DNA of 32,000 nucleotides, from positions 1-32,000 of the forward strand of contig CAWJYB010000056.1 in NCBI GenBank assembly GCA_963846905.1, read 5' to 3'. Position 1 is the stretch's first letter. The number at the start of each line of letters is the position of its first letter. The notes under the pieces are model-generated. The model was not told where the DNA came from and searched no databases. It saw only the letters and a list, made by a program, of their open reading frames with translations. This document shows positions 1 to 19,254 of the stretch, one piece after another. The stretch is from an uncultured Actinomycetota bacterium (GTDB lineage Bacteria > Actinomycetota > Actinomycetes > Mycobacteriales > Mycobacteriaceae). Both the position numbers and the translations under genes were made by a program.

Positions 1-63
1 AGCGAGGAATACGGCGGAATCGAATACGGCGGGTTACCAGTAAACCACTGCATATTGCATCTG
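1..63. repeat. Composite repeat, copy 1 (possibly cut by the window edge)
   Basis: Reads gaGGAATACGGCGGAATCGAATACGGCGGGTTACCAGTAaaCCACTGCATATTGCATCTG. The left arm is the 11-mer GAATACGGCGG twice in a 15-bp register, the core is GGTTACCAGTA, and the right arm is CACTGCA-TATT-GCATCTG. The unit recurs at 8542, 9640 and 18468, and in part at 7749, 9847 and 19141. Confidence 0.8.
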
Positions 64-364
64 ATGAGGGCTCGTCTTCGATCCTCACTGTTCTGTCTCG
101 ATCCGTGGGTCACGGTGATCGATGCTTGGCTCATCGCGGACAAGGACGCGCCGCGCAAGCAGCGCCATACTGCCCGGCGGGTCTGGCAGCGTCTGGTCGT
201 CGAGCATCGGGCGACGCTCGCTGAGGTGACGGTGTCGCGTTACGTGGCGCGGCGTCGGGTCGAACTCGGGGCTGGCGACTCGTGAAGTGTCGATCCGCAG
301 ACGTATCTGGCGGGGGCCGAGGCGGAGGTCGACTTCGGCGAGTTCTACTCGACGATCGCCGGTG
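55..364 (+). pseudogene. istA: IS21-family IstA transposase fragment (N- and C-truncated, in-frame stop)
   Basis: The translation LDPWVTVIDAWLIADKDAPRKQRHTARRVWQRLVVEH...VSRYVARRR matches the conserved APRKQRHTA region of IstA. An in-frame TGA lies at 283-285, and the same frame continues QTYLAGAEAEVDFGEFYSTIAGG (the IstA xEAQVDFGE motif). Similarity stops abruptly at 364/365. Confidence 0.7.
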
Positions 365-1825
365 GGGAGAGATGGTCGAGCGGCCCGCACCGTACGCCGT
401 ATCGTTCGCGGATCCTGTCGAGCGTCTTGCGGTTGTTGTCCGCTCACGGCGGTGGTTGAGCTGGAATTTCATGAGGGCGGCCAGCCGCCGCGGTAGCGGG
501 TACCAGAGCAGCAGGTCGGATCCGAACCCGGCGAACACCTTCTTGGGAAGGTGGTCGAAGGCGAGGCTCAAGTTGTACCCGGTCAGCGGAAATACAATCG
601 GCATCGGCGATTTCCCGGTTTTAGCGCCCAACTCTTCGGCATCCGCCTCGTACAACGGCAGGGTGGTGAGCCCGCCGGTGAACATCAGGTGGGTCAGGAA
701 ATAGCCCGCCTGCAGCGTGAGCGGGATAACCGCCGATCGGGACTGTATCGACAGCGTCCGGCCCGACGGCGACACGAACGGTTCGTACGGATGCGAGCTG
801 CGCAGCATCAGACCGGTGCAGTTGACTATCCAGGTGCCGTCAACGACGCGCTCGGTGTTGCCGCTGCGGAACACGAGTTCAGCGGCACCGTCGCGATCGA
901 CTATATCGGCGAGGTGTTCGTTTTCGGCTCGGCGCAGGCCTTGGTTGATCACGGTCATCTCTGCGTCGGACGTACAACCTCCGAAGCCATGGGCGAACTC
1001 GCATTTGTCGCCCGTCGGGCCGGTCCCGAGAATGGAGTAGTACCAGCGCCGGACCTCCTCTTCGTTGGTCCCGTCGTACCGCTTGGCGAACTCAGTGGCC
1101 AGCGTGGGGAACGGTAGGCCGCCGAACCAGCACCTGACTCCGGTGGCGAACAGGACATCGCGCCGCAGTGCTATCGACCCGCTGCCGACCAGCATGTTCA
1201 CTTCGCGTCCCGGGCATTGCGTGATGAGTGTGTGGGCGGTGTCGAGCCCGGTCTTGCCACCGCCGATGATCCATACTGGGGCATCGGAGTCGACAATCCG
1301 GTGCATGTCGTTCGGGGTCGCCGATTTCACGCGGGCGCTGGAGACGGTCAGCGGCGGGTTCGGCTCAACTTGAAATCCGAAGGCCTTGATCAGCCGCTTG
1401 GCGGTAATAACCCGGGTCTGCCCATCGGGAGCCTGCAACGTGACCCAGACCAGGCTGCCGGTCTCCTCGTGCGATACGTAGTTCCAGCCAAAGCGCTCGT
1501 CGACCTCCACGCGCTTGGAGATGACGTTCAGGCAGTGCCGCAGGTGGTCGAGGATCTCCGGCTTGGTCGCGAGGTAGCTGCGCTCTTTACCGAGCGTCCA
1601 CTTGATATTCCCGGCGGTGAACAGTTGATATGGCTGGTGTAATCGGACGTAGTCGTAGGTGTCGGTCCACATCCCACCGACGCGCGTACGGCGGTCGACG
1701 AGCACCACCCGGTCGTTGCGGCCCAGGTACTGGCTTGCTGCGAAGAGGGCGTTCAGGCCGGCGATTCCCGCGCCGACAATGCAGATTTCGCACTGATCGA
1801 TTTGTAGCGTGTCCATGGCTGCCAC
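345..1825 (-). CDS. FAD/NAD(P)-binding oxidoreductase (flavin-monooxygenase-like), paralogue A; C-terminal frame disturbed
   Basis: It has an N-terminal dinucleotide fold (CIVGAGIAGLNA) and a second fold (WIIGGGKTGLDTA). By eye it is about 85% identical in protein to the ORF at 4550-6037. Relative to that paralogue, 1 nt is missing near 431-441. As a result the given ORF runs on to 131 with an Arg/Pro-rich nonsense tail. In the paralogue's frame it would stop at 345-347. Confidence 0.7.
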
Positions 1826-1873
1826 CCTTCCCCGCAGTTGGTCCTGGGGTTCAGTGTCTCGCAGACCGTTCCG

Positions 1874-1892
1874 GCCGATTAGAGTAATCGGC
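1874..1892. promoter_or_regulatory. Inverted repeat upstream of FMO-like gene A (possible operator)
   Basis: GCCGATTA-gag-TAATCGGC is an 8-bp perfect inverted repeat about 50 bp upstream of the ATG at 1825. The homologous position upstream of paralogue B (about 6086-6104) keeps only the outer 6 bp. Confidence 0.25.
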
Positions 1893-1989
1893 TACTCAAT
1901 TTCTGGACGCATTATCGCAGCTTTGTCGGCTCTAATGTCGCGTGTTGTTGAAACGTTTACGATTGATGTTGACGAGCAATTGATCAGCG

Positions 1990-2180
1990 GTCTTGGTTCC
2001 GACGAGCTGCTCGTGGCTGGTCGGGCGTGTGCTACCGGTGCATTCGGCGATCGGTTCTCGGTGTTTGGGCACCCCCTCGGCGGCCAGCAGCACGATCCGC
2101 ACCTGGGTGGCCAACCCCGCCCGTACCGTCGACGCCCGCGTCAACACCTCCAATCGCGCCCGATCCCCATCACGCAACAC
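1990..2180 (-). pseudogene. IS630-like HTH transposase N-terminal fragment
   Basis: The translation LRDGDRARLEVLTRASTVRAGLATQVRIVLLAAEGVP..IAECTGSTRPT resembles the N-terminal HTH region of IS630-family transposases. It lies in a ~420-bp block (about 1935-2355) that is present in unit A and absent from the homologous unit B. Confidence 0.45.
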
Positions 2181-2574
2181 TAGGTGAACTGACCTGGGCT
2201 CGACAGAGAGCGGCGCCGGACTGCGAACCGTGGAGTCGCACGGGTGTCAAGGGCATCGGCGAGGACTGATCGCCTTCCCGGCTCGCTCTTGCTGATGTGG
2301 CGCAGCGCCAGTCAGCGCGCGCCGGCAAGCCACTACGATGCCCGCAGCTAGCCGACCACCTTGGGCTACCATCACTCCCCCTCGTCCAGTACAGCTGCCA
2401 CGTGTCCGGAGCCGCCAATTAGATTGAGACATAACAGCCCTCACCGTCTCCAAACAACTGGCGGTTACCAGCAACCGCCCGCCAACCACATTGAGACCGG
2501 ACACTCGCCGCGCAACGTGATGGACATGACGCGGTCGTGTATACCGTCGTCCCGCCGGCACCACGCCGAAGATG

Positions 2575-3317
2575 ATGATGCTGCCGATCCGCGACAGCCA
2601 CGACCCGTCGCCGCAGTGGCCGATCACGGGGAGTCTGCGGTTGGACTTGGCGCGGAACAGCAGATCGGCGCCCGTGGCCGCGACCTGGCCGATCAGGTCC
2701 GCGGCGGCGAAGTTGCGGTCGGCGAGCAGCAGCATGCCTTGGTGGAGGCAGCCCAGAAGCTTTGGTGCATAGTTGGTTTCGCCCACGCGTAGGGTGCCGA
2801 AGACGGCGTCGAGTACGGTGCGGGTGCCGCATGCGACCACGGTCAGCATCCGCAGCATCGGATACCCCGACGGGCTGTTGCCGCCGCCGGCCCGGCCGAA
2901 CGCGGCCAGGTTCGCCGGGGTGTCGGGGGTGAACATCGACGTGCCGTCGATCGCGCATACCAGCAGGCCACGCCATCGCGCCGCACCGGCGGCGGGGCCG
3001 CGGACCAGGTCGAACAGCTCCCGCAGCGGTTTGACACCGATACGGCGACGGGCTTGGGCCAACGCCGAGGACACCGGATCGGCGACATCGATGCCATCCA
3101 GGCCCGCGGTCATCCGAGCCCACACCTGGCCGTAGCCGAGCTCAGCGAACAGCGCCGCCGCCAGCAGCAGGTACACCACCACCCGCGACGGCAACGCCCG
3201 GACCCTGGCCTGCACCGTCCGGGTCGATTCCAGCACCGCATCGACCATCTCGAACGGGACGATCTGGGTCAACTCGCCGAGGTGACCGGGCGCGAACCGA
3301 CCCGCAGCAACCACCAC
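2575..3317 (-). pseudogene. IS4-family transposase, C-terminally truncated (about 245 of an expected ~450 aa)
   Basis: The N-terminus is IVPFEMVDAVLESTRTVQARVRALPSRVVVYLLLAAALF (IS4 N-terminal domain type), followed by LLVCAIDGTSMF..LLLADRNFAA (first DDE aspartates). Protein-like sequence ends after ..GSWLSRIG near 2583. The element's outer end lies somewhere between 3317 and ~3485. Confidence 0.65.
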
Positions 3318-3484
3318 CGAACCACGAATGACAGACTGAACAGACAGCGGAACTCCCAGGTGAAAGGTCGTCTTGCGAGGACACCCATCAATACCGGGAG
3401 TTCCGCTGCCCTAACTCGCCGACACGCCGCACTCGTCACACTTGACCCAACAGCCACACCCTTAACTGAACGACATTGACACTA

Positions 3485-3757
3485 GTCCTCGGCATCGAAG
3501 CACTTCTGCCCCGGCGCCACGCCGCGGGATCCCTGGAAACCGAGGTGGCCTACCTGTATGACCGCACCGGCGGATCAATCGGATCACTGCGCGCGCTGCT
3601 CAGCGACGCCGCCATCGCCGCGATCCTAGGTGGCGAGGAACAGGTCGGGCGCAAGCTGCTCGACATGACCTCCACCGACTACGCCGCCGAGGAGTACGGA
3701 AGCCGCACAGCCGAGGGTGAACCCGCTTCACCGACGCCGTTGAGGAAAGCCGAATGA
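3485..3757 (+). pseudogene. tniB: TniB-like AAA+ transposition ATPase, C-terminal fragment only
   Basis: IEALLPRRHAAGSLETEVAYLYDRTGGSIGSLRALLSDAAIAAILGGEEQVGRKLLD matches the C-terminal TniB pattern (..RTGGxIGxL..LL..AA..AI..G.E.I....L). The fragment is 5'-truncated where the IS4 remnant begins. Its stop overlaps the next ATG (ATGA at 3754-3757). Confidence 0.6.
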
Positions 3758-4575
3758 CACTGGCGCCGTTGCCAATCCCCACCCGGATCTGTCACGGCGA
3801 GAACATCGACTCCTACAGCCGCCGCCACGCCGCCCACACTCATTGCGCACCCGCCGACGTCGACCGCGCATTGTGCGAACACAGAATCCTGACCACCATG
3901 GCGCGACGGCACCCCGCACGGTTGCAAGCGTGGCGGACCCTGGGCAGACTACGCGACACCGCATTCACCGCACCCCAGCACATCCTCGACGAAGAAGTGA
4001 CCGAGCGAGCACTGTGCCGGCGCTGCTCTCGCGGCGAACCCGCCCGCGGCAGGCTCCCCGACCTGGGTATGGTGTGCCTCCGACACCGACAATGGTTCGG
4101 ATCACCCCAGACCGACCTCCACGACTACCACCCGGCATTGGCCGCCGAATGCCACTTCAGACACGACCTAGCGGCCCGCAACGTCCTGCACGATTCGCTA
4201 CCCATGCTCATCGGCCGCGAATGCGCCAGCCCCGCCATCATCGGCGAAGACGAAATCACTCATCGGCGAGACCAAACGGGCATCGAAAACCCTGGGCGCT
4301 AACCTGTCCAGAACAGTTCAAGATCGCACGCCTGCTGACCCGCGCCACCTTTCTGCGGGCCGTGACTGATCCAGACGTCGCCGACGCCCAACGCCACGCC
4401 CTCGCCACCAGAGAAGTCGAGAAAATCATCCCCGACCGCGACGACGCCGACCCGTGGCGAGCCACCAACCGAGTATGGACGGCGATCACCCACCTCACCG
4501 ACCGCCGACGAGACGCCCGCATCTACGGCGTCCCCATCCGCGACACCTACTACAACATGCTGCGCCTCATCTGCC
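3754..4575 (+). pseudogene. tniQ: TniQ-family protein, frameshifted (~4290-4302) and 3'-truncated at 4575
   Basis: The N-terminus APLPIPTRICHGENIDSYSRRHAAH is the typical TniQ start (pattern: 'P..P.pGEsl.Syl.RlA'). The reading continues in another frame (ALTCPEQFKIARLL...YYNMLRLICRE) and ends exactly at the unit-B boundary, 4575/4576. Confidence 0.6.
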
Positions 4576-6037
4576 GGGAGAGATGGTCGAGCGGCCCGCA
4601 CCGTACGCCGCATCGCTGGCGGATCGTGTCGAGAGTCTTGCGGTTGGTTTGACGTTCGCGACGGTGGTTGACTTGGAATCTCGCGAAGGCAGCCAGCCGC
4701 CGCGGTAGCGGATACCAGAGCAGCAGGTCAGAGCCGAAACCGGTGAATACTTTGGTGGGGAGGTGGTCAAATGCGAGGCTCAGGTTGTACGCAGTCAGAG
4801 GGAATACCGCTGGTATAGGCGATTTCCCTAATTTGTCCCGCAGGTCTTCCAGATCGAGTTCATACAACGGGAGGGTACTGAGCCCGCCGGTGAACATCAG
4901 GTGGGTGAGGAAATAGCCCGCCTGGAGAGTGATCGGGATGACCGCCGATCTGTGTTGTATCGACAGCGTCTGGCCCGACGGCGAGACGAATGGCTCGTAC
5001 GGATGCGAGCCACGCAGCTGTAGACCGGTGCAGTTGACGATCCACGTGCCCTCGGCGACGCGCGTGGTCTGCCCGCTCCGGTACACGAGTTCGGCGTGAC
5101 CATCGCGATCGACCACATCAGCGAGGTATTCGTTGTCGGCTCGCCGCAGGCCGGTGTCGATGACGGCCATCTCGACATCGGACGTACAGCCGCCGATGCC
5201 ATGGGCGAACTCGCATCGCTCACCCGTTGGACCTGTCCCCACGGCTGAGTAGAGCCAGCGCCGGACCTCGTCTTCGTTGGTCCCGTCGTAGCGCTTCGCG
5301 AACTCGGTGCTGAGGGTGGTGAACGGCAGGCCGCCGAACCAGCGACTCGCTCCCGTACTGAACAGGACATCGCGGCGCAGCGCCATTGACCCGCTGCCGA
5401 CCAACATGTTGACCTCACGGCCCGGGCATTGCGTGATGAGCGTGTGGGCGGTGTCAAGACCGGTCTTGCCACCGCCGATGATCCACACCGGGGTGTTGGA
5501 GTCAACGATCCGGTGCATGTCGTTCGGGGTCGCCGACTGCACGCGTGTACTGGAGACCGCCAGCGGCGGATTCGGCTTCATCTCAGATCCGAACGCCTTG
5601 ATGAGCCGCCTGGCGGTAATCACCCGGGTCTGCCCGTCAGGAGCCCGCAACGTCACCGAGACCAGGCCACCGGACTCCTCGTGCGACACATAGTCCCAGC
5701 CCAAACGCTCATCGATGTCCACCCGGCGCGAGAGGACGTTCAAACAGTGCCGCAGATGGTCGAGAATCTCCGGCTTCGTCGCCAGGTAGCAGCGGTCCTT
5801 GCCGAGCGTCCACTTGATATTCCCGGCGGTGAACAATTGATACGGCTGGTGCAATCGGACGTAGTCGTAGGTGTCGGTCCACATCCCACCGACGCGCGTA
5901 CGGCGGTCGACGAGCACCACCCGGTCGTTGCGGCCAAGGTACTGACTTGCTGCGGAAAGGGCGTTCAGGCCGGCGATTCCCGCGCCGACAACGCAGATTT
6001 CGCACTGATCGATTTGTAGCGTGTCCATGGCTGCCAC
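4550..6037 (-). CDS. FAD/NAD(P)-binding oxidoreductase (flavin-monooxygenase-like), paralogue B
   Basis: This is a 495-aa intact ORF with the same two dinucleotide-binding motifs as paralogue A. The last 8 codons (RQMRRSML) lie beyond the A/B homology boundary at 4576, in antisense tniQ DNA. Confidence 0.75.
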   Translation of the reverse strand: MAAMDTLQIDQCEICVVGAGIAGLNALSAASQYLGRNDRVVLVDRRTRVGGMWTDTYDYVRLHQPYQLFTAGNIKWTLGKDRCYLATKPEILDHLRHCLNVLSRRVDIDERLGWDYVSHEESGGLVSVTLRAPDGQTRVITARRLIKAFGSEMKPNPPLAVSSTRVQSATPNDMHRIVDSNTPVWIIGGGKTGLDTAHTLITQCPGREVNMLVGSGSMALRRDVLFSTGASRWFGGLPFTTLSTEFAKRYDGTNEDEVRRWLYSAVGTGPTGERCEFAHGIGGCTSDVEMAVIDTGLRRADNEYLADVVDRDGHAELVYRSGQTTRVAEGTWIVNCTGLQLRGSHPYEPFVSPSGQTLSIQHRSAVIPITLQAGYFLTHLMFTGGLSTLPLYELDLEDLRDKLGKSPIPAVFPLTAYNLSLAFDHLPTKVFTGFGSDLLLWYPLPRRLAAFARFQVNHRRERQTNRKTLDTIRQRCGVRCGPLDHLSRQMRRSML

Positions 6038-6318
6038 CCTTCCCCGCCCCTGTCCTACTAGCGGTCCAGTGTCTCGCAGACCGATCCGGCCGATCAGAGC
6101 AATCGGCTACTCGTTTCCTGGAAGTATGCTGGCAACTTTGTTGGCTCTCGGTGATCATCAACCGGGCTACTACTCCCGTTGTCCAGTAGTCGACCACCTG
6201 TCCGGAACCGCCAAGCAAACTGAGACATAACAGCCACTGATAATCTCAAAATAACTGGCGGTCGCCAGCGGCTGGCCTTCCCCCGAAACCGTGGAGGCAT
6301 CAGCTATAAGGAGTAGCG

Positions 6319-6609
6319 ATGTCAGAGAAACGGAAGAAGTACGACCGGGAGTTCCGTGAGGGGGCTGTTCGGATTGTGCGTGAGACGGGTAAGTCGATCG
6401 CGCAGGTGGCTCGGGATCTGGGGATCCATGAGGGCACTCTGGGCAATTGGGTTGCCCAGGACCGCGAGGCTCGGGAGGGTCGTGGGGAGTTGACCCGCGA
6501 CGATCTCGAGGAGCTCAAACGCCTGCGCAGCGAGAACGCCGAGTTGCGGATGGAGCGCGATGTCCTCAAGCGATCAGTGGTCCTGTGGGTGAAGGAGGCG
6601 ACGAAGTGA
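6319..6609 (+). CDS. IS3-family transposase OrfA (HTH)
   Basis: The 96-aa product is MSEKRKKYDREFREGAVRIV..SIAQVARDLGIHEGTLGNWV followed by a leucine-zipper-like LEELKRLRSENAELRMERDVLK. An SD-like aaggag lies upstream. Confidence 0.9.
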   Translation: MSEKRKKYDREFREGAVRIVRETGKSIAQVARDLGIHEGTLGNWVAQDREAREGRGELTRDDLEELKRLRSENAELRMERDVLKRSVVLWVKEATK

Positions 6610-7541
6610 GCGTGGCACGTTTCATCGCCGACCAGAGGACCAAATATCTAGTGCCACATGTGATTACGTGCGTGTTGTTGGGTGTCAGCGTGTCGTGGTT
6701 CTACAAGTGGATCGCCCGTGCTGAGTCGACCGATGGGTTGCATACCGACACCGATCGGCGCCGCGCGCGCCTCGATACCGCAGTCGCCGCGGCGTTCGCG
6801 GCGGCCAAGGGATTGCATGGTTCGCCGCGGCTGATCGCTGACCTGCGCGATCTGGGTTGGGAAGTGTCGGAGAAGACGGTGGCCGACTCGATGCGCCGCC
6901 AGGGTTTGGTGGCGCGCCGCATAAAGCGCCGCAATGGGCTCACCAAGCAGGACAAGACGGCACCGAAGTTTCCTGACCTGGTCAAACGGGACTTCACCGC
7001 GGCGGCGCCGAACCGCAAATGGGTCGGCGACATGACCGAGATCCCCACTGAGTCCGGGCAGAAACTGTATCTGGCGACGGTGATTGACCTCTATAGCCGC
7101 CGACTGCTGGGGGCGGCCATGGGCCTGCACCCGGATGCCGACTTGGCGTGTGCGGCGATCAAAATGGCCGTGGCCGCGCGCGGCGGCCGTCAAGCGATCT
7201 GGCGGGCTGAGGAGTCCGACCGGGTCATATTCCATACCGACCGCGGTAGCACCTATACCGCACACGCGTTCACCAAGCTGTGCCGGCAGTTGGGGATTCG
7301 GCAGTCGATGGGCCGGGTCGGATCGTGTTTCGACAACGCCGCCGCGGAGGCGTTCTTCTCCTCGTTGGAATGGGAGGTGCTGTCCCGCAATCGTTTCCGT
7401 GATACGATCCATGCGCAGGCTGTGGTTATCGACTGGTGCTACACGTTCTACAATCACCAACGCCGGCACAGTGCCGCCGACGGGCTATCGCCCGTCAACT
7501 ACGAGATCAGGGAATCCAAGACCAAGCCGGAAGCGGCATAG
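6606..7541 (+). CDS. IS3-family transposase OrfB (DDE/rve integrase core)
   Basis: GTG at 6606 overlaps the orfA stop (GTGA). The product contains WVGDMTEI, FHTDRGSTYTA and NAAAEAFFSSLEWE (DDE triad context). I saw no canonical A6G slippery heptamer in the orfA/orfB overlap. Confidence 0.85.
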   Translation: MSVARFIADQRTKYLVPHVITCVLLGVSVSWFYKWIARAESTDGLHTDTDRRRARLDTAVAAAFAAAKGLHGSPRLIADLRDLGWEVSEKTVADSMRRQGLVARRIKRRNGLTKQDKTAPKFPDLVKRDFTAAAPNRKWVGDMTEIPTESGQKLYLATVIDLYSRRLLGAAMGLHPDADLACAAIKMAVAARGGRQAIWRAEESDRVIFHTDRGSTYTAHAFTKLCRQLGIRQSMGRVGSCFDNAAAEAFFSSLEWEVLSRNRFRDTIHAQAVVIDWCYTFYNHQRRHSAADGLSPVNYEIRESKTKPEAA

Positions 7542-7748
7542 GAAACCCTCCACGATTTCGGGGGAACCACACGGTCGCCAGCGGCCGCCCGTCAGTTTGG
7601 ATTGAGACCGGACAACTCGATCAGCGACTGACGCTATGTTGGCTGACGCACAAGGGGCGCAAGCCTGTCGAGCGCGCGGCCGTCAAGTGCGTCAGCGAGG
7701 CCGGTCGAGTTGACCCGACTTGCCGACAAACTACCGCTCCGCCTTGCT

Positions 7749-7788
7749 GGTTACCAGTAGAGCACTGCGTATTGCACTGCGACCCAAC
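7749..7788. repeat. Composite repeat, copy 6: right half only
   Basis: Reads GGTTACCAGTAGAGCACTGCGTATTGCACTGCGACCCAAC. It matches the core and right arm of copies 1 and 4. The sequence immediately to its left (ccgctccgccttgct) has no similarity to the GAATCGAATA arm. It ends 46 bp from the vapC stop. Confidence 0.7.
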
Positions 7789-11069: not shown

Positions 11070-11131
11070 GCGGATCCTCTGATCGGGAGGCCCGGTATGG
11101 TGCCGGGCCGCATGGTCGGAGGTCAGTTGTT

Positions 11132-12361
11132 ATGGCGACTTTGTCTGCGTTGGTGTCGGGCCTGGAGGCGGAGTTACAGCGTTTGGGCTACAAGGATTCG
11201 ACGCTGGTTTGGTACCGGGGTTGTTGGCGGCGGATGCAGAAGTACTTCGCTGCGCGTGGTGTCGAGGAGTTCTCCCTGGATGCGGCGATGGCGTGGGTCG
11301 ACGACGCGTGTGGGTTTTTCGGCAAGGAGCAGGCCGGCACCCTGAAGCGCACCGATGTGTATTTGTTCAGGGTCGCTCAGATGCTGGGGGATTACGCGGT
11401 CCACGGGGCGGTGCTGCGCCGCTATAACCGGTCGGTGAGCAAGCTGGACGGGGCCGGTGCCGAGACGGTCGCCCGGTTCCAGGCGCACCTGCGCTCGGCT
11501 GGGCGCTCGGCCTCGACCGTGCGGACCTACGGGACGCTGGCCGGGGAGTTCGTCGCGTTCACCGGCACCCGCGGAGGGCTGGGCTGCTGCGACGCCGCCA
11601 TGATCGGGGCGTTTGTTGCCACGCTGACCGGATACCAGTTCAAGACTGTCGAGCAGAAACTGTGTGCGGTGCGGTCGTTCCTGCGGTTCGCCTGCGCCGC
11701 CGGCCTGGTCGACGGGGCGTGTCTGGAGGCGGTGCCCGCGGCGCGCTCGGCCAGGCAGGCCAGGATTCCGTCGGTGTGGGATCCGGGCGAGGTGGCCAGG
11801 ATCGTGGAAGCGATCGACCGCGGCAACCCGTGCGGGAAACGGGATTACGCGATCATCCTGCTGATCACCAGGCTCGGGCTGCGCGGCGTGGACATCAAGC
11901 GGCTGGAGTTCGCCGACTTCGACTGGCCGGGCAACCGGCTATTCGTGACGCAGGCCAAGACCGGTCACCGGGTGCAGTTGCCGCTGCTGAAAGATGTTGG
12001 CTGGGCGGTGATCGACTACATCCGCCACGCCCGGCCGGACTGCGACTGCCGGCAGGTGTTCGTGCGGCACACGGCCCCGATCGGCCCGTTCTCCGACCAG
12101 GATCATCTGCATCAGGTTCTGGTCAAACATGCCCGCGCAGCACACGTTGCGGTGAGCGAGAAACGCCGCCATGGCATGCACTCGCTGCGGCATTCGCTGG
12201 CGACCCGGCTGATGGAAAGCGGCACACCGGTCGAGCAGATCGCCGACATCCTCGGTCACCAGTCCGTCGAGTCGACCGGTGTCTACCTGAAATCCTCGTT
12301 GGGCCTGCTGGCCAAGTGCGCGCTGGACCCGGACGCACCGGCGAACGGGGCGTCGCGATGA
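11132..12361 (+). CDS. ritA: Tyrosine recombinase RitA-like (409 aa)
   Basis: It has GLRGVDIKRLEF (Arg I), HSLRHSLATRL (HxxR) and LGHQSVESTGVYLK (His/Tyr). It is the first and longest of the trio, with a GGAGG SD-like sequence 9 nt upstream. Confidence 0.85.
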   Translation: MATLSALVSGLEAELQRLGYKDSTLVWYRGCWRRMQKYFAARGVEEFSLDAAMAWVDDACGFFGKEQAGTLKRTDVYLFRVAQMLGDYAVHGAVLRRYNRSVSKLDGAGAETVARFQAHLRSAGRSASTVRTYGTLAGEFVAFTGTRGGLGCCDAAMIGAFVATLTGYQFKTVEQKLCAVRSFLRFACAAGLVDGACLEAVPAARSARQARIPSVWDPGEVARIVEAIDRGNPCGKRDYAIILLITRLGLRGVDIKRLEFADFDWPGNRLFVTQAKTGHRVQLPLLKDVGWAVIDYIRHARPDCDCRQVFVRHTAPIGPFSDQDHLHQVLVKHARAAHVAVSEKRRHGMHSLRHSLATRLMESGTPVEQIADILGHQSVESTGVYLKSSLGLLAKCALDPDAPANGASR

Positions 12362-13338
12362 GCCCCGCCCTCACGATGACCGAGGCGATCACCGCCCTGG
12401 TCACCGAAAAACGTGCCACGGGTTACAAATACCACGCCGAGCAGCGGGTGCTGACCCGGTTCGCCGCGTTCTGCGCCAGGGAGTTCCCCGGGCAGCAGGC
12501 GCCCACCCGGGCCTCAGTCGAGGCCTGGATCGCGGCCGCCCGCCGGCGCGGAGTCACCCCGGCGACCCTGCACAGCTTGGCCGCGCCGGTGCGGGAGCTG
12601 GCCCGCTGGCTGGGCCGCCGGGGCGTGCCGGCCTACGTCCTGCCCGCCAGGGCACTGCCCCGCCCCGCCCGCTACGTCCCGCACATCTACACCGACCAGG
12701 AACTGGCGGCCCTGTTCACCCAAACCGACCGCTGCCACTACGACTCGCAGGTCCCGTTCCGGCACCTGGTCATGCCGGTGCTGTTCCGCACGATCTACGC
12801 CTGCGGCCTGCGTGCCTCCGAAGCCCGGCTGCTGCGCTTCGACGACGTCGACCTCGACGCCGGGGTCCTGACAATCCGCGACGGCAAGGGCGGCAAAGAC
12901 CGGCAGGTCCCGGTCAGCGCCGGGCTGCGCGACAGACTGGCCGGCTACCACGCCCGCGTCGCCGGGCGCACCGGCGGGGACTGGTTCTTCCCCGGCACCG
13001 CCGGGCGCCCGCTGACGATCGGCAACATCGACAAGAACTTCCGCCGGTTTCTGTGGCAGGCCCGCATCCCCCACGGCGGCAGGGGCCATGGCCCCCGCGT
13101 GCATGATCTGCGACACGCCATGGCAGTCAACAATCTTCGGTCGTGGTTCGCCGGCGGCGAGGACGTCGCCGCGTTGCTGCCGGTCCTGCAGACCTACCTG
13201 GGCCACGCCTCCCTCTCCGACACCGACTACTACCTGAGGCTGACCGCCGAGTCCTACCCGCACATCACCACCTGCATCCAGCGTGCCCACGGCGACGTCG
13301 TCCCACCCGTCACGGAAGGCCCCTGTGATGGCAACTGA
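12358..13338 (+). CDS. ritB: Tyrosine recombinase RitB-like (326 aa)
   Basis: ATG at 12358 overlaps the ritA stop (ATGA). It has CGLRASEARLLRF, HDLRHAMAVN and LGHASLSDTDYYLR. The 232 codons upstream in the same ORF overlap ritA out of frame and are not counted. Confidence 0.85.
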   Translation: MSPALTMTEAITALVTEKRATGYKYHAEQRVLTRFAAFCAREFPGQQAPTRASVEAWIAAARRRGVTPATLHSLAAPVRELARWLGRRGVPAYVLPARALPRPARYVPHIYTDQELAALFTQTDRCHYDSQVPFRHLVMPVLFRTIYACGLRASEARLLRFDDVDLDAGVLTIRDGKGGKDRQVPVSAGLRDRLAGYHARVAGRTGGDWFFPGTAGRPLTIGNIDKNFRRFLWQARIPHGGRGHGPRVHDLRHAMAVNNLRSWFAGGEDVAALLPVLQTYLGHASLSDTDYYLRLTAESYPHITTCIQRAHGDVVPPVTEGPCDGN

Positions 13339-13757
13339 TTTCGCGGTGTTGCTGGCCCGCTTCCTCACCTCGCACCTGGCCGGGCTGCGCGGCTGCTCAC
13401 CCCACACGATCGCCTCCTACCGCGACACCTTCAAGCTGCTGATCGCCTGGTTCCGCGACTGCAGATCCATCCCGCCCGACAAACTCACCCTCGATCGCAT
13501 CGACGCCGACGCGATCACCGCGTTCCTGGACTGGCTGGAAGCCGAACGGCACAACAGCATCTCGACCCGCAACCAGCGCCTGGCTGCGGTCAGCTCGTTC
13601 TTCCGGTGGCTGCAATCCCAGGACCCGACCAGGATGGCCGGCTGCCAGGACATCCTCGCCGTCCCCGCCAAACGCAGGGCCCAGCCGAGCGTCAATCACC
13701 TCACCATCGAGCAGACTCGCCGTCTGCTCGCCCAGCCCGACCGGTCCACCCGGTCAG
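13328..13757 (+). pseudogene. ritC: Tyrosine recombinase RitC-like, N-terminal part (interrupted by IS3 copy 2)
   Basis: MATDFAVLLARFLTSHLAGLRGCSPHTIASYRDTFKLL..ITAFLDWLE..RNSISTRNQRLAAVSSFFRW is a SAM-like N-terminal domain. It is broken after ..AQPDRSTR at the IS end. Confidence 0.8.
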
Positions 13758-13787
13758 TGTGGTTCCCCCGAAATCGTGGAGGGTTTC

Positions 13788-14723
13788 CTATGCCGCTTCC
13801 GGCTTGGTCTTGGATTCCCTGATCTCGTAGTTGACGGGCGATAGCCCGTCGGCGGCACTGTGCCGGCGTTGGTGATTGTAGAACGTGTAGCACCAGTCGA
13901 TAACCACAGCCTGCGCATGGATCGTATCACGGAAACGATTGCGGGACAGCACCTCCCATTCCAACGAGGAGAAGAACGCCTCCGCGGCGGCGTTGTCGAA
14001 ACACGATCCGACCCGGCCCATCGACTGCCGAATCCCCAACTGCCGGCACAGCTTGGTGAACGCGTGTGCGGTATAGGTGCTACCGCGGTCGGTATGGAAT
14101 ATGACCCGGTCGGACTCCTCAGCCCGCCAGATCGCTTGACGGCCGCCGCGCGCGGCCACGGCCATTTTGATCGCCGCACACGCCAAGTCGGCATCCGGGT
14201 GCAGGCCCATGGCCGCCCCCAGCAGTCGGCGGCTATAGAGGTCAATCACCGTCGCCAGATACAGTTTCTGCCCGGACTCAGTGGGGATCTCGGTCATGTC
14301 GCCGACCCATTTGCGGTTCGGCGCCGCCGCGGTGAAGTCCCGTTTGACCAGGTCAGGAAACTTCGGTGCCGTCTTGTCCTGCTTGGTGAGCCCATTGCGG
14401 CGCTTGATGCGGCGCGCCACCAAACCCTGGCGGCGCATCGAGTCGGCCACCGTCTTCTCCGACACTTCCCAACCCAGATCGCGCAGGTCAGCGATCAGCC
14501 GCGGCGAACCATGCAATCCCTTGGCCGCCGCGAACGCCGCGGCGACTGCGGTATCGAGGCGCGCGCGGCGCCGATCGGTGTCGGTATGCAACCCATCGGT
14601 CGACTCAGCACGGGCGATCCACTTGTAGAACCACGACACGCTGACACCCAACAACACGCACGTAATCACATGTGGCACTAGATATTTGGTCCTCTGGTCG
14701 GCGATGAAACGTGCCACGCTCAC
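13788..14723 (-). CDS. IS3-family transposase OrfB (copy 2)
   Basis: The protein is the same as 6606-7541, and the mirror coordinates within the IS agree. Confidence 0.85.
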   Translation of the reverse strand: MSVARFIADQRTKYLVPHVITCVLLGVSVSWFYKWIARAESTDGLHTDTDRRRARLDTAVAAAFAAAKGLHGSPRLIADLRDLGWEVSEKTVADSMRRQGLVARRIKRRNGLTKQDKTAPKFPDLVKRDFTAAAPNRKWVGDMTEIPTESGQKLYLATVIDLYSRRLLGAAMGLHPDADLACAAIKMAVAARGGRQAIWRAEESDRVIFHTDRGSTYTAHAFTKLCRQLGIRQSMGRVGSCFDNAAAEAFFSSLEWEVLSRNRFRDTIHAQAVVIDWCYTFYNHQRRHSAADGLSPVNYEIRESKTKPEAA

Positions 14724-15010
14724 TTCGTCGCCTCCTTCACCCACAGGACCACTGATCGCTTGAGGACATCGCGCTCCATCCGCAACTCGGCGTTCTCGCT
14801 GCGCAGGCGTTTGAGCTCCTCGAGATCGTCGCGGGTCAACTCCCCACGACCCTCCCGAGCCTCGCGGTCCTGGGCAACCCAATTGCCCAGAGTGCCCTCA
14901 TGGACCCCCAGATCCCGAGCCACCTGCGCGATCGACTTACCCGTCTCACGCACAATCCGAACAGCCCCCTCACGGAACTCCCGGTCGTACTTCTTCCGTT
15001 TCTCTGACAT
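14720..15010 (-). CDS. IS3-family transposase OrfA (copy 2)
   Basis: The 96-aa product is identical to copy 1 except for one residue (DLGVHEG versus DLGIHEG). Confidence 0.9.
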   Translation of the reverse strand: MSEKRKKYDREFREGAVRIVRETGKSIAQVARDLGVHEGTLGNWVAQDREAREGRGELTRDDLEELKRLRSENAELRMERDVLKRSVVLWVKEATK

Positions 15011-15056
15011 CGCTACTCCTTATAGCTGATGCCTCCACGGTTTCGGGGGAAGGCCA

Positions 15057-15634
15057 CAGGCCGCCGTGACGCGACCCTGCTGGCCACCCTCTACGACACC
15101 GCCGCCAGGGTCCAAGAACTCGCCGACCTGACCGTACGCGACATCCGCCCCCAGCCCCCTGCCCTGGCCGTGCTGACCGGCAAGGGCCGCAAAACCCGCC
15201 ACGTCCCGCTCGGCGACAACACCGCAGCACTGCTCAACGCCTACCTGACCGAACACGGCCTCGACAAACCCGGCCACGACGACCACCCACTGTTCACCAA
15301 CCAGCATCGCAACAAACTCAGCCGCGGCGGCATCGCCTGGATCATCGGCAAATACCAAGCCCAGGAAGCCGATCCGACGCTCACCAACGCTCGCCTCAGC
15401 CCACACATTCTGCGGCACAGTCGGGCCATGCACCTCTACGAAGCAGGCGTGCCGCTGCCCTACATCCGCGACATCCTCGGACACGTCGACCTGACCACCA
15501 CCGAGATCTACGCACGCGCCTCCACCGAGGCCAAACGCAAAGCCCTCGAAGCCACCTACACCGAAATCGTCACCGACGAGCTACCCGAATGGAACCACGA
15601 CAGCGGGCTGCTCACCTGGCTCGCCAGCCTGTGA
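15057..15634 (+). pseudogene. ritC: Tyrosine recombinase RitC-like, C-terminal catalytic part
   Basis: ..GRRDATLLATLYDTAARVQELADLTVRDI (Arg I), HILRHSRAMHL (HxxR), LGHVDLTTTEIYAR (His/Tyr). Confidence 0.8.
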
Positions 15635-15653
15635 GCTCAGCACGCACCACGAG

Positions 15654-15735
15654 GTTATGCGCAGTGATCGACCCCAAAATCGCTGTCACCAGGCCTTGCC
15701 GGCCGGCGCTGCGCATAACCCGGCGCTGTTCATAA
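15654..15735. repeat. RIT right terminal inverted repeat
   Basis: It is the reverse complement of the left TIR. It is followed by 26 extra bp (15736-15761), ggcggcTTATGTTCAGCTGAACATAA, which contain a perfect 20-bp palindrome related to the TTATGAACAG terminus. Confidence 0.85.
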
Positions 15736-15761
15736 GGCGGCTTATGTTCAGCTGAACATAA

Positions 15762-16478
15762 TCCACCCTGCGGGGTGCCGGCGGTGGTGTCCTCCAAGTG
15801 GCGTTCCTCGGTGAGGATGCCCGCCTTGAGGAACTCCTTCACCAGAGCCAGAACGCGTTTGTCTCCGACTCGTCGCCGCACCCGGTCCATGAGTGCCGGA
15901 TGCGAGATTTCGTCGAAACAGGCTTTGATGTCGCCCTCCACGATCCACTCGTAGCAACGAGGGCGGGTCGTGAAGAAGCGAACCTCGGCCACCGCGTCAT
16001 GAGTCCGGCGTTTCGGGCGGAAACCGTAGGAACACGGCAGAAAATCCGCCTCGAAAATCGGCTCCAACACCAGCTTCAACGATGCCTGGACCACCCGATC
16101 CGCCACGGTGGGAATCCCTAGACGACGCAGCCGTCCATTCGCCTTCGGGATCATCCGCTCACGCACCGGCAACGGGCGGAAACTACGGTCCTTCAAACTG
16201 TTCCGCAGCTCGTCGAGGAACTCCTCGACACCCTGCAACGCCGCAATCGAACGAGCGGTGCGCCCGTCCACTCCGGCCGTTGCGGCACCCTTGTTTCCGC
16301 TCACCCGATCCCACGCGACCAACAAGAACGCGGGGTCGGCAACGAGGTTGAACAGGTCGTCGAACCTGCGATGAGGATCATCGCGAGCCCAACGGTGCAG
16401 CTTGGTCTGGATCTTCAGTACCCGTTGTCGCGCCAGCATCAGCGCCAGCTCGAGTTCGTCGGTATTCACCGGCGACAT
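15762..16478 (-). pseudogene. Group II intron reverse transcriptase, N-terminal part
   Basis: MSPVNTDELE..WDRVSGNKGAATAGVDG (RT0/1), RMIPKANGRLRRLGIPTVADRVVQ (RT2), YGFRPKRRTHDA (RT3), DIKACFDEI (RT4), ..GTPQGG. The likely ATG is at 16478; the longer listed ORF begins inside the intron RNA leader. Confidence 0.85.
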
Positions 16479-17131
16479 CACACTCCTCCTGACCTTCCAG
16501 AACTTCCACTGCTGTCTTGCTGGCCCCCTTCGCCCTGCGGCCGCCTCTCGCGACCTCCACGGCGGGTCGTTACGCCCGCGACTACTACGGGACCTCCGCC
16601 CCACCACAGCACTCCTCGGCCGGACACGGGCCTTCCACCCGAACCGGACCGGCTGCCCGGACCGAGTGGGCGGAGCGCAGGATGGTTCCCACGTTCACCG
16701 AACGATCGATCGGTCAGGGAGGCACCCAGCTCTACCCCGGCAGCATCGCCACGCCTACGCCGCAGTCCTTCGACGCGGCCTCCCCACCGCCGATCAAAAA
16801 CGGCTTCGGAGTCACCCGCCACCACAGGTCCCCATGAGGGCTTTATGGTGGCGGCTGTGCGCTGCATCCCGGCCCATATCCGCCAGATTCGAGCCGGCAG
16901 AGAGGTTACGGGGCGTCGACCACTGGTTCGCTCACGCTGTACCTTCTGACCTTGCTCGGCCAGCCCGCGCCGTCTGGCAGTGCCGGCACGTCTGGCCTTT
17001 GTCGGGGCCGCTTGCCACCCTCACCGGCGTTCCCCGGATCGGGCTGCCCCCAGCTTCACCCGGACCGCTGCGACGGCCCGAGGGAGACGGTCTCTCACCA
17101 CCTCTCGATCTATCAGCGCCTCGTGGCGCAC

Positions 17132-17197
17132 TTGACCGTCTCTCGGGATGACGACCACGGGTGTTGTGCCGTCGTTGATCTTGCCGATGGCTACTAG
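17132..17197 (+). pseudogene. 3' remainder of the intron-split gene fragment
   Basis: With the intron removed, 10116-10118 (GTG) joins 17132 (TTG) in frame, giving ..GRVGDPV|LTVSRDDDHGCCAVVDLADGY*. Whether this is the native C-terminus cannot be verified. Confidence 0.25.
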
Positions 17198-17392
17198 CCA
17201 TCAACGGAGACGTGGTGGATCCGGACGTGACAACCGAGACCGGATCGCTGGGCGAGATCGTCATCCCCACAGCGTCAAACTAGGCGGCCACGGACCCGCT
17301 CGGTCAGCGTGAATCCTGAGTGCCTGGCCACCGATTCCTCTCGGCGGCCCCGGGCACTCAGCACGTCGCTCGACATCCCCCGAGCAGTCGAG

Positions 17393-17504: not shown

Positions 17505-17855
17505 TCAGAGATCTAGGACGAAACGCAGCGCTTGGTCAATGGCTTGCATCTGTCCTGGACTAATCATTCCTTGGCGAGATGACAGACGTTCGACGGACAC
17601 CACTCGCAGTTGGTCGCAGCGAGCGTAGGAAATATGGTCCAGCCCGCTGCTCGCTGGCTCAAGTTCGACGTGGCTTCGCAGGCCGTAACCAGCGGTCGTG
17701 ATCGGGACAATGACCACTAGACCGCCCGGTCCGTTGTTGAGAATGTCGACCGACACCACCACCGCCGGGCGGTAAAAGGCCGGTTCGTGTCCGACTGGCT
17801 GTCCGAGGTCGACGTGGTGCACTTCCCCTCGCCAGATCAAGCCAGTGAGTCCCAC
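17505..17855 (-). CDS. mazF: MazF/PemK-family toxin (endoribonuclease), module 3
   Basis: IWRGEVHHVDLGQPVGHEPAFYRPAVVVSVD...VIVPITT... is the typical MazF N-terminus and core. The start is either the GTG at 17855 or the TTG at 17840, which overlaps the antitoxin stop (TTGA). Confidence 0.8.
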   Translation of the reverse strand: MGLTGLIWRGEVHHVDLGQPVGHEPAFYRPAVVVSVDILNNGPGGLVVIVPITTAGYGLRSHVELEPASSGLDHISYARCDQLRVVSVERLSSRQGMISPGQMQAIDQALRFVLDL

Positions 17856-18070
17856 TCGTGACGCTCGGCCAGGTATTGCTCCCAGAGTTCGGGGTCGTTG
17901 CGCAGGCGTTGGTAATCCCCGTTGAGCCCTCGCAAGAATTCCTGCCTTTCCAAGGCGTCGATGGCTGCGTGCACGACGTCGACAACGGCGGTTTGACGAG
18001 CCTTGGCTAGAGATTGCAGCCGCTCAGAATCGGGACGGCGGACTCGGACGGTTGTGGTTTCTGCTGCCAT
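17837..18070 (-). CDS. mazE: MazE-like antitoxin (RHH type), module 3
   Basis: The 77-aa product is TTVRVRRPDSERLQSLAKARQTAVVDVVHAAIDAL plus an acidic/aromatic C-terminus (DYQRLRNDPELWEQYLAERHEWD). It lies immediately upstream of, and overlaps, the MazF gene. Confidence 0.7.
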   Translation of the reverse strand: MAAETTTVRVRRPDSERLQSLAKARQTAVVDVVHAAIDALERQEFLRGLNGDYQRLRNDPELWEQYLAERHEWDSLA

Positions 18071-18078
18071 GGAATCAG

Positions 18079-18358: not shown

Positions 18359-18467
18359 CGCAATGCAGGCCAGCCGATCCGCGCGGGCCAAAGTGGGTCA
18401 GGTACTGCCGCCGGGCCGTCGGGCGTCGCCTCGTCTCATCAGCCGAAGTCACCGATGGCGAGTCGAA

Positions 18468-18532
18468 GGAGTACGGCCGAATCGAATATGGCGGGTTACC
18501 AGTAAACGTCGCCTTTGCACTGCGGCCCCAAC
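18468..18532. repeat. Composite repeat, copy 4 (full length)
   Basis: Reads GGAGTACGGCCGAATCGAATATGGCGGGTTACCAGTAAACgtcgcctTTGCACTGCGGCCCCAAC. It ends 8 nt from the mazF4 stop codon (18541-18543). Confidence 0.8.
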
Positions 18533-18540
18533 GAGTTTCA

Positions 18541-18885
18541 CTACCGAGCAAGGCCGAGGAAGGCCATCATTGCCCGCTCGATCTCGACGAGTTGCTCCGC
18601 CGTTAGTCGGCCCACCCGGGCATGGAGATCCGACCTTCTGACCGTTGTGAGCTTGTCGACCATCACATCGCTATCGTGATCGAGTCCCGAAAGTCGCCCG
18701 TCTCCGCCGTTGATGCGGATGCGTATCAGCGGCGCATCCAACAGCGTGCTGGTCATCGGCGCGACAGTTACCGAACTCGTCGCATCGAAGAGGTCATCCT
18801 GAACGATCACCGCCGGACGCGGCTTCGCCGCGTAGACCCCCCCTGCGACCGTCCAAATCTCCCCTCGATTCACTCCTCGTCCCAC
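18541..18885 (-). CDS. mazF: MazF/PemK-family toxin, module 4
   Basis: [41 protein letters not shown]... is a PemK-like fold signature. It overlaps the upstream small antitoxin gene by 16 nt. Confidence 0.8.
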
Positions 18886-19076
18886 CGTGTCGAGACTGCC
18901 TCGAAGAAGTCCTGGTCGTCGTTGTTTTCGTCTGCTCGCGCGACCAGCGAGGACTGCTTGTGCGCCTCGACCGCGAAAGTCTCAGTCCGTACGTCAGGCA
19001 CCCAGACCTGCAGTGGCCGGAGGCCGCGCTCACGCATCCGTCGTCGGTACTCGCCGACTCTTTCCCTCACCGCCAT
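18870..19076 (-). CDS. mazE: MazE-family antitoxin (DUF3018-like), module 4
   Basis: The 68-aa product [55 protein letters not shown] matches the pattern I associate with DUF3018 antitoxins paired with PemK toxins. Confidence 0.7.
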
Positions 19077-19084
19077 GGTGCGAT

Positions 19085-19096
19085 GTTACATGTAAC
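19085..19096. promoter_or_regulatory. Perfect palindrome GTTACATGTAAC upstream of mazE4 (putative operator)
   Basis: It lies 9 bp from the mazE4 ATG. It is followed by two direct repeats, TTGGGCCGATGG (19102-19113) and TTGGGGCCGATGG (19121-19133). Confidence 0.35.
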
Positions 19097-19140
19097 GCTG
19101 ATTTGGGCCGATGGGCTGAGTTTGGGGCCGATGGATAGTC

Positions 19141-19192
19141 AGGCGGTCGCGCCAGCGAACAAGGCGGTAAACGTGATTGCGCTACGTCAACA
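19141..19192. repeat. Possible degenerate composite repeat, copy 7 (core deleted)
   Basis: gccagCGAACAAGGCGG|TAAACGTgaTTGCGCTACGtCAAC resembles copy 4 (CGAATATGGCGG-gttaccag-TAAACGTcgccTTTGCACTGCGgccccAAC) but lacks the 8-nt GTTACCAG. The similarity is weak. Confidence 0.3.
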
Positions 19193-19254
19193 CCACCGCC
19201 GTCCTCGACGTAGTCGCCCGTGGCCGTCCGGAGTCCGGTCCGGCGGAAAATGCA

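Follow-up and report, generated by a model that had tools for sequence, protein, structure and literature searches.

A putative att-type site delimiting toxin-antitoxin gene cassettes in Mycobacteriaceae

The stretch of DNA analysed here, called the window, comprises 32,000 nucleotides (positions 1 to 32,000 of contig CAWJYB010000056.1, assembly GCA_963846905.1) from an uncultured actinobacterium of the family Mycobacteriaceae. In its left part, four toxin-antitoxin (TA) operons are interspersed with copies of a composite repeat, made of a conserved core and a variable tail. The comparison with other genomes makes it probable that this repeat is the att-type site of a cassette system, with exchange at the core/tail boundary and a recombinase acting in trans; recombination is what we infer from the comparative patterns. 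An earlier note on this DNA had left the choice between an undescribed site-specific cassette system and a decayed family of miniature inverted-repeat transposable elements (MITEs) or repetitive extragenic palindromes (REPs). The tests reported here favour the former and disfavour the latter.

In the proposed mechanism, a two-part att-type site would delimit small mobile gene cassettes, and the system would be common to Mycobacteriaceae. One cassette would consist of a tail, its genes, and the next core. Read in the direction of the TA genes, the core would lie upstream of the cassette's own promoter and the tail just past the toxin stop. Strand exchange in or beside a TTAC-CA-GTA palindrome would join any core to any tail, and cassettes could be excised, inserted, and reshuffled while the array stays in one orientation. 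The exchange would be enzymatic and site-specific, and circular intermediates would be expected to exist. The enzyme would be encoded outside the array, as a tyrosine recombinase acting in trans; the best candidate family is that of a mobile element described below (element E), and an E-type or related recombinase may do the work. The system might still be active in the window genome, whose array is decayed.

Site and cassettes in the window

The core is 38 bp long (GGAATACGGCGGAATCGAATAYGGCGGGTTACCAGTA). On the plus strand of the window it comprises two direct 11-bp repeats, GAATAYGGCGG, the starts of which are 15 bp apart, followed by G-TTAC-CA-GTA. Across the aligned copies, information content is high over the 38-nt core and drops abruptly after CCAGTA. 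The tail is variable. In most copies its first part is the 11-bp repeat in inverted form (CGCCGTATT), and what comes next has one of two styles, ..GCACTGC.GCCCAACGGTTTTCA or a palindromic ..TTCATCTGATGAATCA, both of which are present in the window. The centre of the site, TTAC-CA-GTAA, is a small palindrome with the direct repeats on its left and the inverted repeat on its right, a layout like that of a duplex recombinase site to which additional binding sites are joined. By analogy only, the pair of direct repeats is reminiscent of the DR1 and DR2 sites of attI1. In at least 12 loci, the tail side is about 100 nt longer and includes extra conserved blocks (CCGATAA and GTCCGGTCTCA-N7-CTGGCGGTTTTCGCA), which is compatible with an arm holding several protein-binding sites. 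The second of these blocks is non-coding, lies about 60-90 nt right of the core, often after CCGATAA, and precedes unrelated genes (in L015, L029, L032, L044, L049, L052, L054, L061, L081, and others; L numbers designate the compared loci and contigs). At 7590-7612 of the window, the same block stands in the opposite orientation as the target of an IS3 insertion.

The copies in the window were located in three ways. Matching of the 39-nt consensus of the earlier note, with at most one mismatch, returned 6-44, 9642-9680, and 18468-18506, for an expectation of 0 in the 100 shuffles that served as gauge of chance. De novo repeat finding recovered the same families together with the copy 8542-8608. 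A site profile, built from 97 copies in other genomes and then run on the window, detected four full copies at 4-57 (E = 3.5e-17), 8542-8592 (E = 1.3e-11), 9640-9691 (E = 6.4e-15), and 18467-18516 (E = 1.3e-15). The four full copies listed in the earlier note are thereby borne out, with profile values from 1e-11 to 4e-17. Its two half copies are real but truncated. The one at 7749-7773 retains the 3' part of the core and the tail (profile positions 30-54, E = 0.008). The other, at 9853-9869, retains the 5' part of the core and is weak by score alone (E = 0.12); it is regarded as genuine because 9723-9869, comprising a left flank and a core start, aligns with 82% identity to a Mycobacterium vaccae site in L043. 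A possible scar at 19141-19192 neither aligns to the copies nor matches the profile, and was discarded. The sites and TA cassettes are, from left to right:

4..63, plus strand: site c1, left end of the array; core 6-44 with two direct 11-bp repeats GAATACGGCGG, then GTTACCAGTA; tail 45-63
7746..7788, plus strand: truncated site c2; the core 3' end GGTTACCAGTAG and a type-A tail (..TTGCACTGCGACCCAAC) remain
7835..8490, minus strand: cassette vapBC1; PIN toxin 7835-8233 and Phd/YefM antitoxin 8230-8490 (Pfam); toxin stop 46 nt from the c2 tail
8538..8608, plus strand: site c3; first direct repeat diverged; type-B tail (..TTTTCGTCGGATGAATCAC)
8792..9446, minus strand: cassette vapBC2; PIN toxin 8792-9205 with altered C-terminus; FitA-type RHH antitoxin open reading frame (ORF) 9033-9446, which continues into the toxin gene (Pfam)
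9639..9712, plus strand: site c4; full core and type-B tail
9723..9874, plus strand: truncated core c5 (9853-9874) and remnant of a cassette upstream region, from the M. vaccae alignment and the profile
17505..18070, minus strand: cassette mazEF3; PemK toxin 17505-17855 and partner 17837-18070 (Pfam)
18467..18532, plus strand: site c6; full core and type-A tail (..TTTGCACTGCGGCCCCAAC)
18541..19076, minus strand: cassette mazEF4; PemK toxin 18541-18885 and MazE-like antitoxin 18870-19076 (Pfam); toxin stop 8 nt from the c6 tail

The location of all four TA operons on the minus strand, reported earlier, was confirmed with Pfam. The core belongs to the cassette on its left, which is downstream in the TA direction, and not to the toxin gene that it follows. 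The earlier note had placed a repeat copy 50-400 bp upstream of the operator/promoter of each operon; a core does lie upstream of three operons, at 52, 194, and 398 nt, and mazEF4 has none. The repeat copies that it had seen closely behind the toxin stops of mazF4 and vapC1 were found again at the distances listed above, counted to the tail. Its IS982-like fragment is not supported, the ORF in question (8727-8951) being without Pfam match. The inter-repeat unit said to contain no ORF was correctly described; it spans 9713-9852 and is the remnant of a deleted cassette.

Both mazEF cassettes recur elsewhere. mazEF3 shows 83-93% identity to copies in 10 other genomes, which have other neighbours and are each bounded by sites. 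Beside it, at 17462-17471, a tail-like GTTTTCATCC can be read in the sequence. mazEF4 is 80-87.5% identical in five genomes with other neighbours (L011, L026, L016, L031, L087), among which L011 and L026 have a site at each end; the homology stops at about window position 19098-19109. The ORF 19255-19932, encoding an AAA_21/AAA_15 ATPase of 225 aa, adjoins the array where the site upstream of mazEF4 would be expected. Its Pfam matches fall at its two ends only, and it looks internally deleted, a state that fits a deletion which took the last site of the array. Between the upstream region of mazEF3 and core c6, about 225 nt (18242-18466) have no counterpart in L066 and L079, where the homology reaches the core; this segment is possibly the remnant of a deleted cassette. 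The vapBC2 cassette is apparently degenerate. A metagenome contig, L098, was found through the vapB1 protein; it is 99% identical to the window and extends it by 1.77 kb leftwards. L098 lacks 75 nt within vapC2 (window 8819-8893), and no genes are called there in it.

Several features of known kinds of sites were sought. The earlier note had described the arms of the repeat as direct rather than inverted and the site as unlike attC, and both descriptions agree with the present data: the aligned copies show two direct repeats, and single-strand folds of both strands at the four window sites are no better than those of shuffled sequences (z -1.8 to +1.3). No terminal inverted repeats were found in the aligned window copies. 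Type-A tails include GCCCAAC, which fits RYYYAAC, at 25-30 nt from the junction. The core variants of the window fall every third base, and a coding origin was considered. In the larger set of copies, the 3-base periodicity proved to be an artefact of three degenerate positions in the search pattern; the first repeat, which is free of this bias, is non-periodic. A promoter was likewise rejected, as inspection of 150 aligned sites revealed no consistent -10 or -35 box on either strand. A structured RNA or tRNA-derived att site was rejected as well, since no Rfam family was matched at gathering or permissive thresholds and no tRNA or tmRNA was found.

Distribution of the core and exchange at its edge

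Species-representative genomes were searched with an exact 24-nt pattern from the core, in which three positions were degenerate. The core was found in 95 stretches, nearly all from Mycobacterium, Mycolicibacterium, and Mycolicibacter and one from Gordonia, and also on five Mycobacterium plasmids and one Rhodococcus plasmid. It is absent from 50,697 phage records and from IMG/VR, and an origin as a phage attP was dismissed. M. smegmatis seems to be without the site. More diverged neighbouring copies were collected with the profile within blocks of at most 8 kb. Two to four copies occur in 47 of the 95 blocks, none of which is of mixed orientation, and all 67 adjacent site pairs point in the same direction. 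The clustering that the earlier note had proposed to test is found, in the form of same-direction arrays. The spacing peaks at 650-800 bp, the size of a TA operon with its flanks, and 19 of the 67 adjacent pairs are in this range.

The units hold mostly MazEF and VapBC operons. When the ORFs inside them were scanned against Pfam separately for each strand, PemK (10 ORFs), PIN (six), MazE, and Phd matches were all on the strand opposite to the core and none on the same strand. Other cargo, including CBM_2, SDR, GMC oxidoreductase, methyltransferase, TetR, and IS3 genes, occupies both strands. Plus-strand housekeeping genes (SDR, P450) have their 3' ends turned towards the leftmost cores. In five loci, a site is followed directly on its right by a yaeQ-like gene with 89-96% identity between species (seen in L009, L028, L049, L077, L093, and others). 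Two sites bracket this gene in L009, and it may serve the arrays as a conserved anchor or be a cassette in its own right. The two plasmid contexts inspected have no integrase beside the site. In L096 a tyrosine recombinase does lie beside the core; a full-length homologue in M. austroafricanum has no core nearby, and the gene was set aside as a coincidental or truncated neighbour. Full-text searching of the literature yielded no description of such arrays or of the core; the arrays are also absent from a survey of the mobilome of Mycolicibacterium (PMC8190616).

The position of the exchange can be read from flanks shared between genomes. One shared block, CzcD/ArsR, has 99.9-100% identity between species over as much as 6 kb. 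On the left it stops at irregular positions; on the right all seven copies end at CCAGTC and are followed by seven different continuations. The flank of a 1.1-kb cassette for a cellulose-binding (CBM_2) protein is present in about 12 genomes, with no fewer than four left neighbours and many on the right. A P450 left flank is shared by six genomes with differing right sides, and one vapBC cassette, present in four genomes, has three different neighbours on its left and three on its right. Where the left flanks of two sites agree and the right flanks do not (70 pairs), the median number of core mismatches is 2.5, compared with 7 in unrelated pairs, and the tails look unrelated (17 of 24). In the 12 pairs with the same right and different left flanks, the cores look unrelated (7.5) and the tails are closer (13). 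A core variant therefore stays with its left flank, a tail variant with its right flank, which locates the exchange point between core and tail rather than throughout the 38 bp.

An orthologous locus tells the same. The left extension of L098 includes an SDR gene that ends 173 nt before the first core. Over about 1.8 kb to the left of the first core of the window, identity to M. peregrinum and M. septicum is 97.1%. It ends with the last core base, past which the window, M. peregrinum, and M. septicum carry unrelated DNA. This flank places the window organism near the M. fortuitum group. The exchange of whole blocks, for which the earlier note had proposed a check, is accordingly seen both between species and at an orthologous locus, and the breakpoints map to the end of GGTTACCAGTA.

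The same boundary is the insertion point of a mobile element, here called element E. One flank family occurs in two states, empty in M. nebraskense, M. helveticum, and M. gordonae and filled in Mycobacterium sp. WUMAC-067 and M. parascrofulaceum. Relative to the empty L007, the filled L035 has an insertion of 2964 bp after CCAGTGA, exactly between core and tail.

Element E, about 2.96 kb: L035 4251-7214; also in L107, L100-L105, and L109-L113

The three proteins encoded by this insert are a clear tyrosine recombinase (365 aa), an HTH protein (107 aa), and a 423-aa protein with weak similarity to tyrosine recombinases; across copies, the sizes are 357-365 aa for the recombinase, 107 aa for the HTH_26 protein, and 414-430 aa for the recombinase-like protein. 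The recombinase family is very widespread in Actinobacteria, with 75-90% identity across Mycobacterium, Nocardia, Arthrobacter, Streptomyces, and Amycolatopsis. Contigs of about 3 kb often carry it, as expected of a multi-copy mobile element. Another copy of E occupies the same position of a different core in M. avium 10-5581, and one in M. persicum lies in a degenerate site-like sequence, split into TTACCGGCAAGA and AGTACCCCGT. A metagenome scan with 10 nt of the core end joined to the end of E retrieved five contigs, all with complete cores and with four different left flanks. The junction of GGTTACCRGTNN with GTTTYYCGTG stands beside complete cores with different flanks in M. avium and in four soil contigs, and E-bearing contigs that have one flank in common differ in the other.

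In sum, E inserts after CCRGTNN at six or more different cores, with neither inverted repeats nor target duplication. The four nucleotides after its other end vary (GTTA, GGCA, AGTA, CTTA). The core-side end of E (CAATCCGGCTGAAC, TGAAATC) resembles tail blocks (CAATACGGCGTAC, TGAAAAC) when compared by eye only. From the exact insertion of E at the core/tail boundary it follows that a tyrosine recombinase recognises and cuts this junction. We infer that E-type enzymes also move the cassettes.

Other mobile elements and flanks of the window

The array of the window is heavily decayed by IS3 and IS4 insertion sequences (IS), a group II intron, and a recombinase-in-trio (RIT) element. The features outside the TA cassettes are:

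64..7745, minus strand: large non-TA unit between c1 and c2, with FAD oxidoreductase paralogs (131-1825 and 4550-6037), an IS4 transposase (2247-3317), an IS3 copy (6273-7572), and a segmental duplication
10119..17300, minus strand: group II intron in the mazEF3-carrying unit; 5' boundary approximate; interrupted by the RIT element
10982-15740, inside the reverse transcriptase (RT) ORF of the intron: RIT element with inverted repeats of about 88 nt (10982-11069 and 15654-15740); carries the IS3 copy 13757-15056

The segmental duplication relates 365-2440 to 4576-6235, with 80-93% identity and an offset of about 4212 nt, and includes the two FAD/NAD oxidoreductase paralogs. The first of them is called as two genes in L098, which suggests a frameshift. 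The IS3-family copies at 6273-7572 and 13757-15056 are 100% identical and inverted relative to each other. Around the former there is a direct repeat of 13 bp, GGTCGCCAGCGGC, a large size for the target duplication of an IS3 element.

The group II intron was recognised from its domains V/VI (Rfam RF00029 at 10119-10218) and from an RT/maturase split into 15612-16607 and 10201-10977. Its 5' end was not located, and no model for D1-D4 matched. L098 has an extra 1052-bp insertion within this intron, at window 10347, with a DUF6431/HTH gene and an IS-like character; otherwise its cassette order is identical to that of the window. Group II intron domains also lie near a site in L088, a contig of M. 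innocens.

Although the earlier note had seen no integrase, three tandem tyrosine recombinases (Pfam Phage_integrase) are encoded at 11132-12361, 12364-13338, and 13283-13822 plus 15029-15634, the third being split by the IS3 copy at 13757-15056. RIT elements are defined by three tandem tyrosine-recombinase genes together with long inverted repeats (Ricker et al. 2013, as cited in PMC8138268), and 10982-15740 has both. Nothing ties these genes to the repeat. They score far below the cut-offs for integron integrases when the window genes are compared with Pfam and NCBIfam, and they were rejected as the cassette enzyme because no homologues lie near other sites beyond general family resemblance. 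Right of 19932, the window continues with ordinary-looking chromosomal genes and no recombinase. A beta-lactamase-family gene (PF00144) at 20753-21986 is read as two overlapping ORFs, 20753-21544 and 21300-21986, and is probably frameshifted or a pseudogene.

Alternative explanations and known systems

Several observations weigh against a cassette system. A single copy is present in 48 of the 95 blocks of at most 8 kb, and lone scattered copies may occur. No recombinase family is recurrent in the 8-kb blocks, and no such family is present in the window array. Upstream of mazEF4 in the window, no site is detectable. Pairs of genomes with and without a single cassette are missing among 164 sites, as is expected with one genome per species, and no circular junction was seen. 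The copies were gathered with an exact pattern, and the conservation within that pattern is overestimated. The complementarity between direct and inverted repeats shows no clear covariation. For a hairpin or covariation of the inverted repeat with the second direct repeat, each tail was compared both to the neighbouring core and to the one that closes the same cassette at its opposite end; the means of 6.98 and 7.16 of 11 (n = 50) are uninformative. Element E is widespread in Actinobacteria that are not seen to carry the core and has no core of its own, and may merely exploit the site. Lastly, four other mobile elements disrupt the array of the window, which may have become an inactive relic.

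Two other explanations deserve most attention. The core might be a conserved functional DNA element, such as one bound by a host regulator or a nucleoid protein, located far upstream of many small operons, with flanks that were mixed by occasional homologous recombination between the 38-bp identities rather than by a dedicated recombinase. Such a role would suit the direct 11-bp repeats, which are typical of protein-binding sites, the link of the core to the upstream region of the operon on its left, and the want of a recombinase nearby. It is nevertheless unlikely, given that exchange is concentrated at one edge, with cores following the left flank and tails the right, and that the CzcD/ArsR blocks, 100% identical, stop at one and the same base in seven contexts. 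A stretch of 38 bp is also a poor substrate for RecA-type exchange. Furthermore, the leftmost cores face the 3' ends of SDR and P450 genes, where there is no operon to regulate, and an independent tyrosine-recombinase element, E, uses exactly this edge.

The units might, alternatively, be small non-autonomous transposons with a conserved 38-bp right end and a weakly conserved left end, which insert in tandem and in one orientation after a resident right end, in the manner of IS200/IS605 or Tn554. This would account for the asymmetric ends, the fixed orientation, and the lack of terminal inverted repeats and target duplications. Element E acts in this way at the same position, with its four variable junction nucleotides, and in Tn554 the carried-over core likewise varies at the junction. 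The core also includes TTAC, the target of IS608. The junction, on the other hand, lies 5-6 nt beyond TTAC, and stable subterminal hairpins, which IS200/IS605 ends need, are missing. Reciprocal att recombination would leave patterns alike, and the element would be the same unit, from tail to core, in either case. Tandem transposition is given a small chance of being correct, and the att-type site remains the preferred reading.

A decayed MITE or REP family lying by chance between TA loci could explain copies that are short, intergenic, numerous, and in the window partly truncated. It is very improbable in view of the missing terminal inverted repeats and stable hairpins, the single orientation of 67 of 67 neighbouring pairs and of every locus, the strict orientation relative to the TA cargo, flank exchange precise to one base, and strong conservation across genera; nor is the repeat the terminus of a known IS or MITE, as the earlier note had considered. 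There is next to no prospect that the window holds the remnant of a true integron, a cluster of attC sites that lost its integrase (CALIN): the array logic and TA cargo do resemble sedentary chromosomal integrons and GCCCAAC fits RYYYAAC, but the site has direct repeats and single-strand folds at the level of shuffles, exchange is at TTACCAGTA and not GTTRRRY, the conserved half is upstream of the cassette, no IntI lies nearby among the window genes or in the 8-kb blocks, and complete integrons are absent from all the genomes of Actinobacteria surveyed with IntegronFinder (PMC4889954).

On a broader view, for which the chances fall a little short of even, the arrays would form an undescribed cassette platform of the Mycobacteriaceae, integron-like but of independent origin. 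It would use a duplex att site and be served in trans by the Tn554-like 3-kb element or a relative, its cassettes would be dominated by self-regulated TA operons and include some metabolic, metal-resistance, and secreted-protein genes, and it might be a main route for the gain and shuffling of TA operons. Mycobacteria have very large and variable TA sets, and a site that brackets TA operons in several genera and on plasmids offers a concrete mechanism for their acquisition. If confirmed, the cassette-array design would extend to a phylum without integrons, on a different kind of site. The 38-bp core provides a simple marker for variable regions and their cargo in mycobacterial genomes and metagenomes, and together with its recombinase it could become a tool for mycobacterial genetics. 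Culturable carriers include M. vaccae, M. peregrinum, M. septicum, M. gordonae, and M. avium 10-5581. The principle of cassette arrays with site-specific exchange is already known; what is new is the site with its host range, together with the cargo rules and the probable enzyme.

Among known systems, sedentary chromosomal integrons such as the Vibrio superintegron, with attC sites of the VCR type, have highly similar sites in one direction spaced by single small operons, many of them TA cassettes. They also share the occurrence of one cassette in different array contexts and of arrays without an adjacent integrase (CALIN). Same-direction sites bounding exchanged units are present here, whereas an IntI, an attC hairpin, and a GTTRRRY crossover are not; the crossover is TTACCAGTA, the conserved half lies upstream of the cassette, the TA cassettes bear their own operator/promoter regions, and the host is actinobacterial.

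Cis-mobilizable elements (CIMEs) and integrative elements accrete in tandem, flanked by att repeats, at tRNA genes or as in ICESt1/CIME. The present units resemble CIMEs in having an att identity block as direct repeats around each unit, no integrase of their own, with dependence on one that would be supplied in trans, and growth at one chromosomal anchor, here downstream of an SDR gene. Complete units with a site at both ends are represented by the interval between c3 and c4 in the window and by 67 site intervals elsewhere. Unlike CIMEs, the units are far smaller (0.65-2 kb), the identity block is no tRNA or recognisable gene end, and the arrays occur at several loci and on plasmids.

Tn554 inserts at one specific site in one orientation and has asymmetric ends, neither inverted repeats nor target duplication, and three genes, two for tyrosine recombinases and one for a small third protein. 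Element E is similar in its site and orientation specificity, its asymmetric ends, its lack of inverted repeats and target duplication, its few junction nucleotides that vary between copies, and the tyrosine-recombinase type of two of its three genes. The Tn554 family of tyrosine-recombinase transposons, with the att554 site, goes back to Bastos and Murphy (1988, as cited in PMC8138268). Gene sizes and order differ in E (357-365 aa, 107-aa HTH, 414-430 aa), and its att site is multi-copy and lies within cassette arrays. The pdif modules of Acinetobacter plasmids depend on XerC/XerD and on 28-bp, 11-6-11 Xer sites of alternating orientation. Like the present units, they are small modules, often with TA genes, between short conserved sites in varied contexts, and their recombinase is not in the module; unlike them, all sites here are direct, and inspection of the aligned sites, with no mycobacterial dif in the comparison, revealed no dif-like ATAA-N6-TTAT. 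By the features examined, the arrays are a member of none of these systems. Their closest functional analogue is the sedentary chromosomal integron, and the mechanistically nearer models are att-flanked non-autonomous elements and transposons of the Tn554 type.

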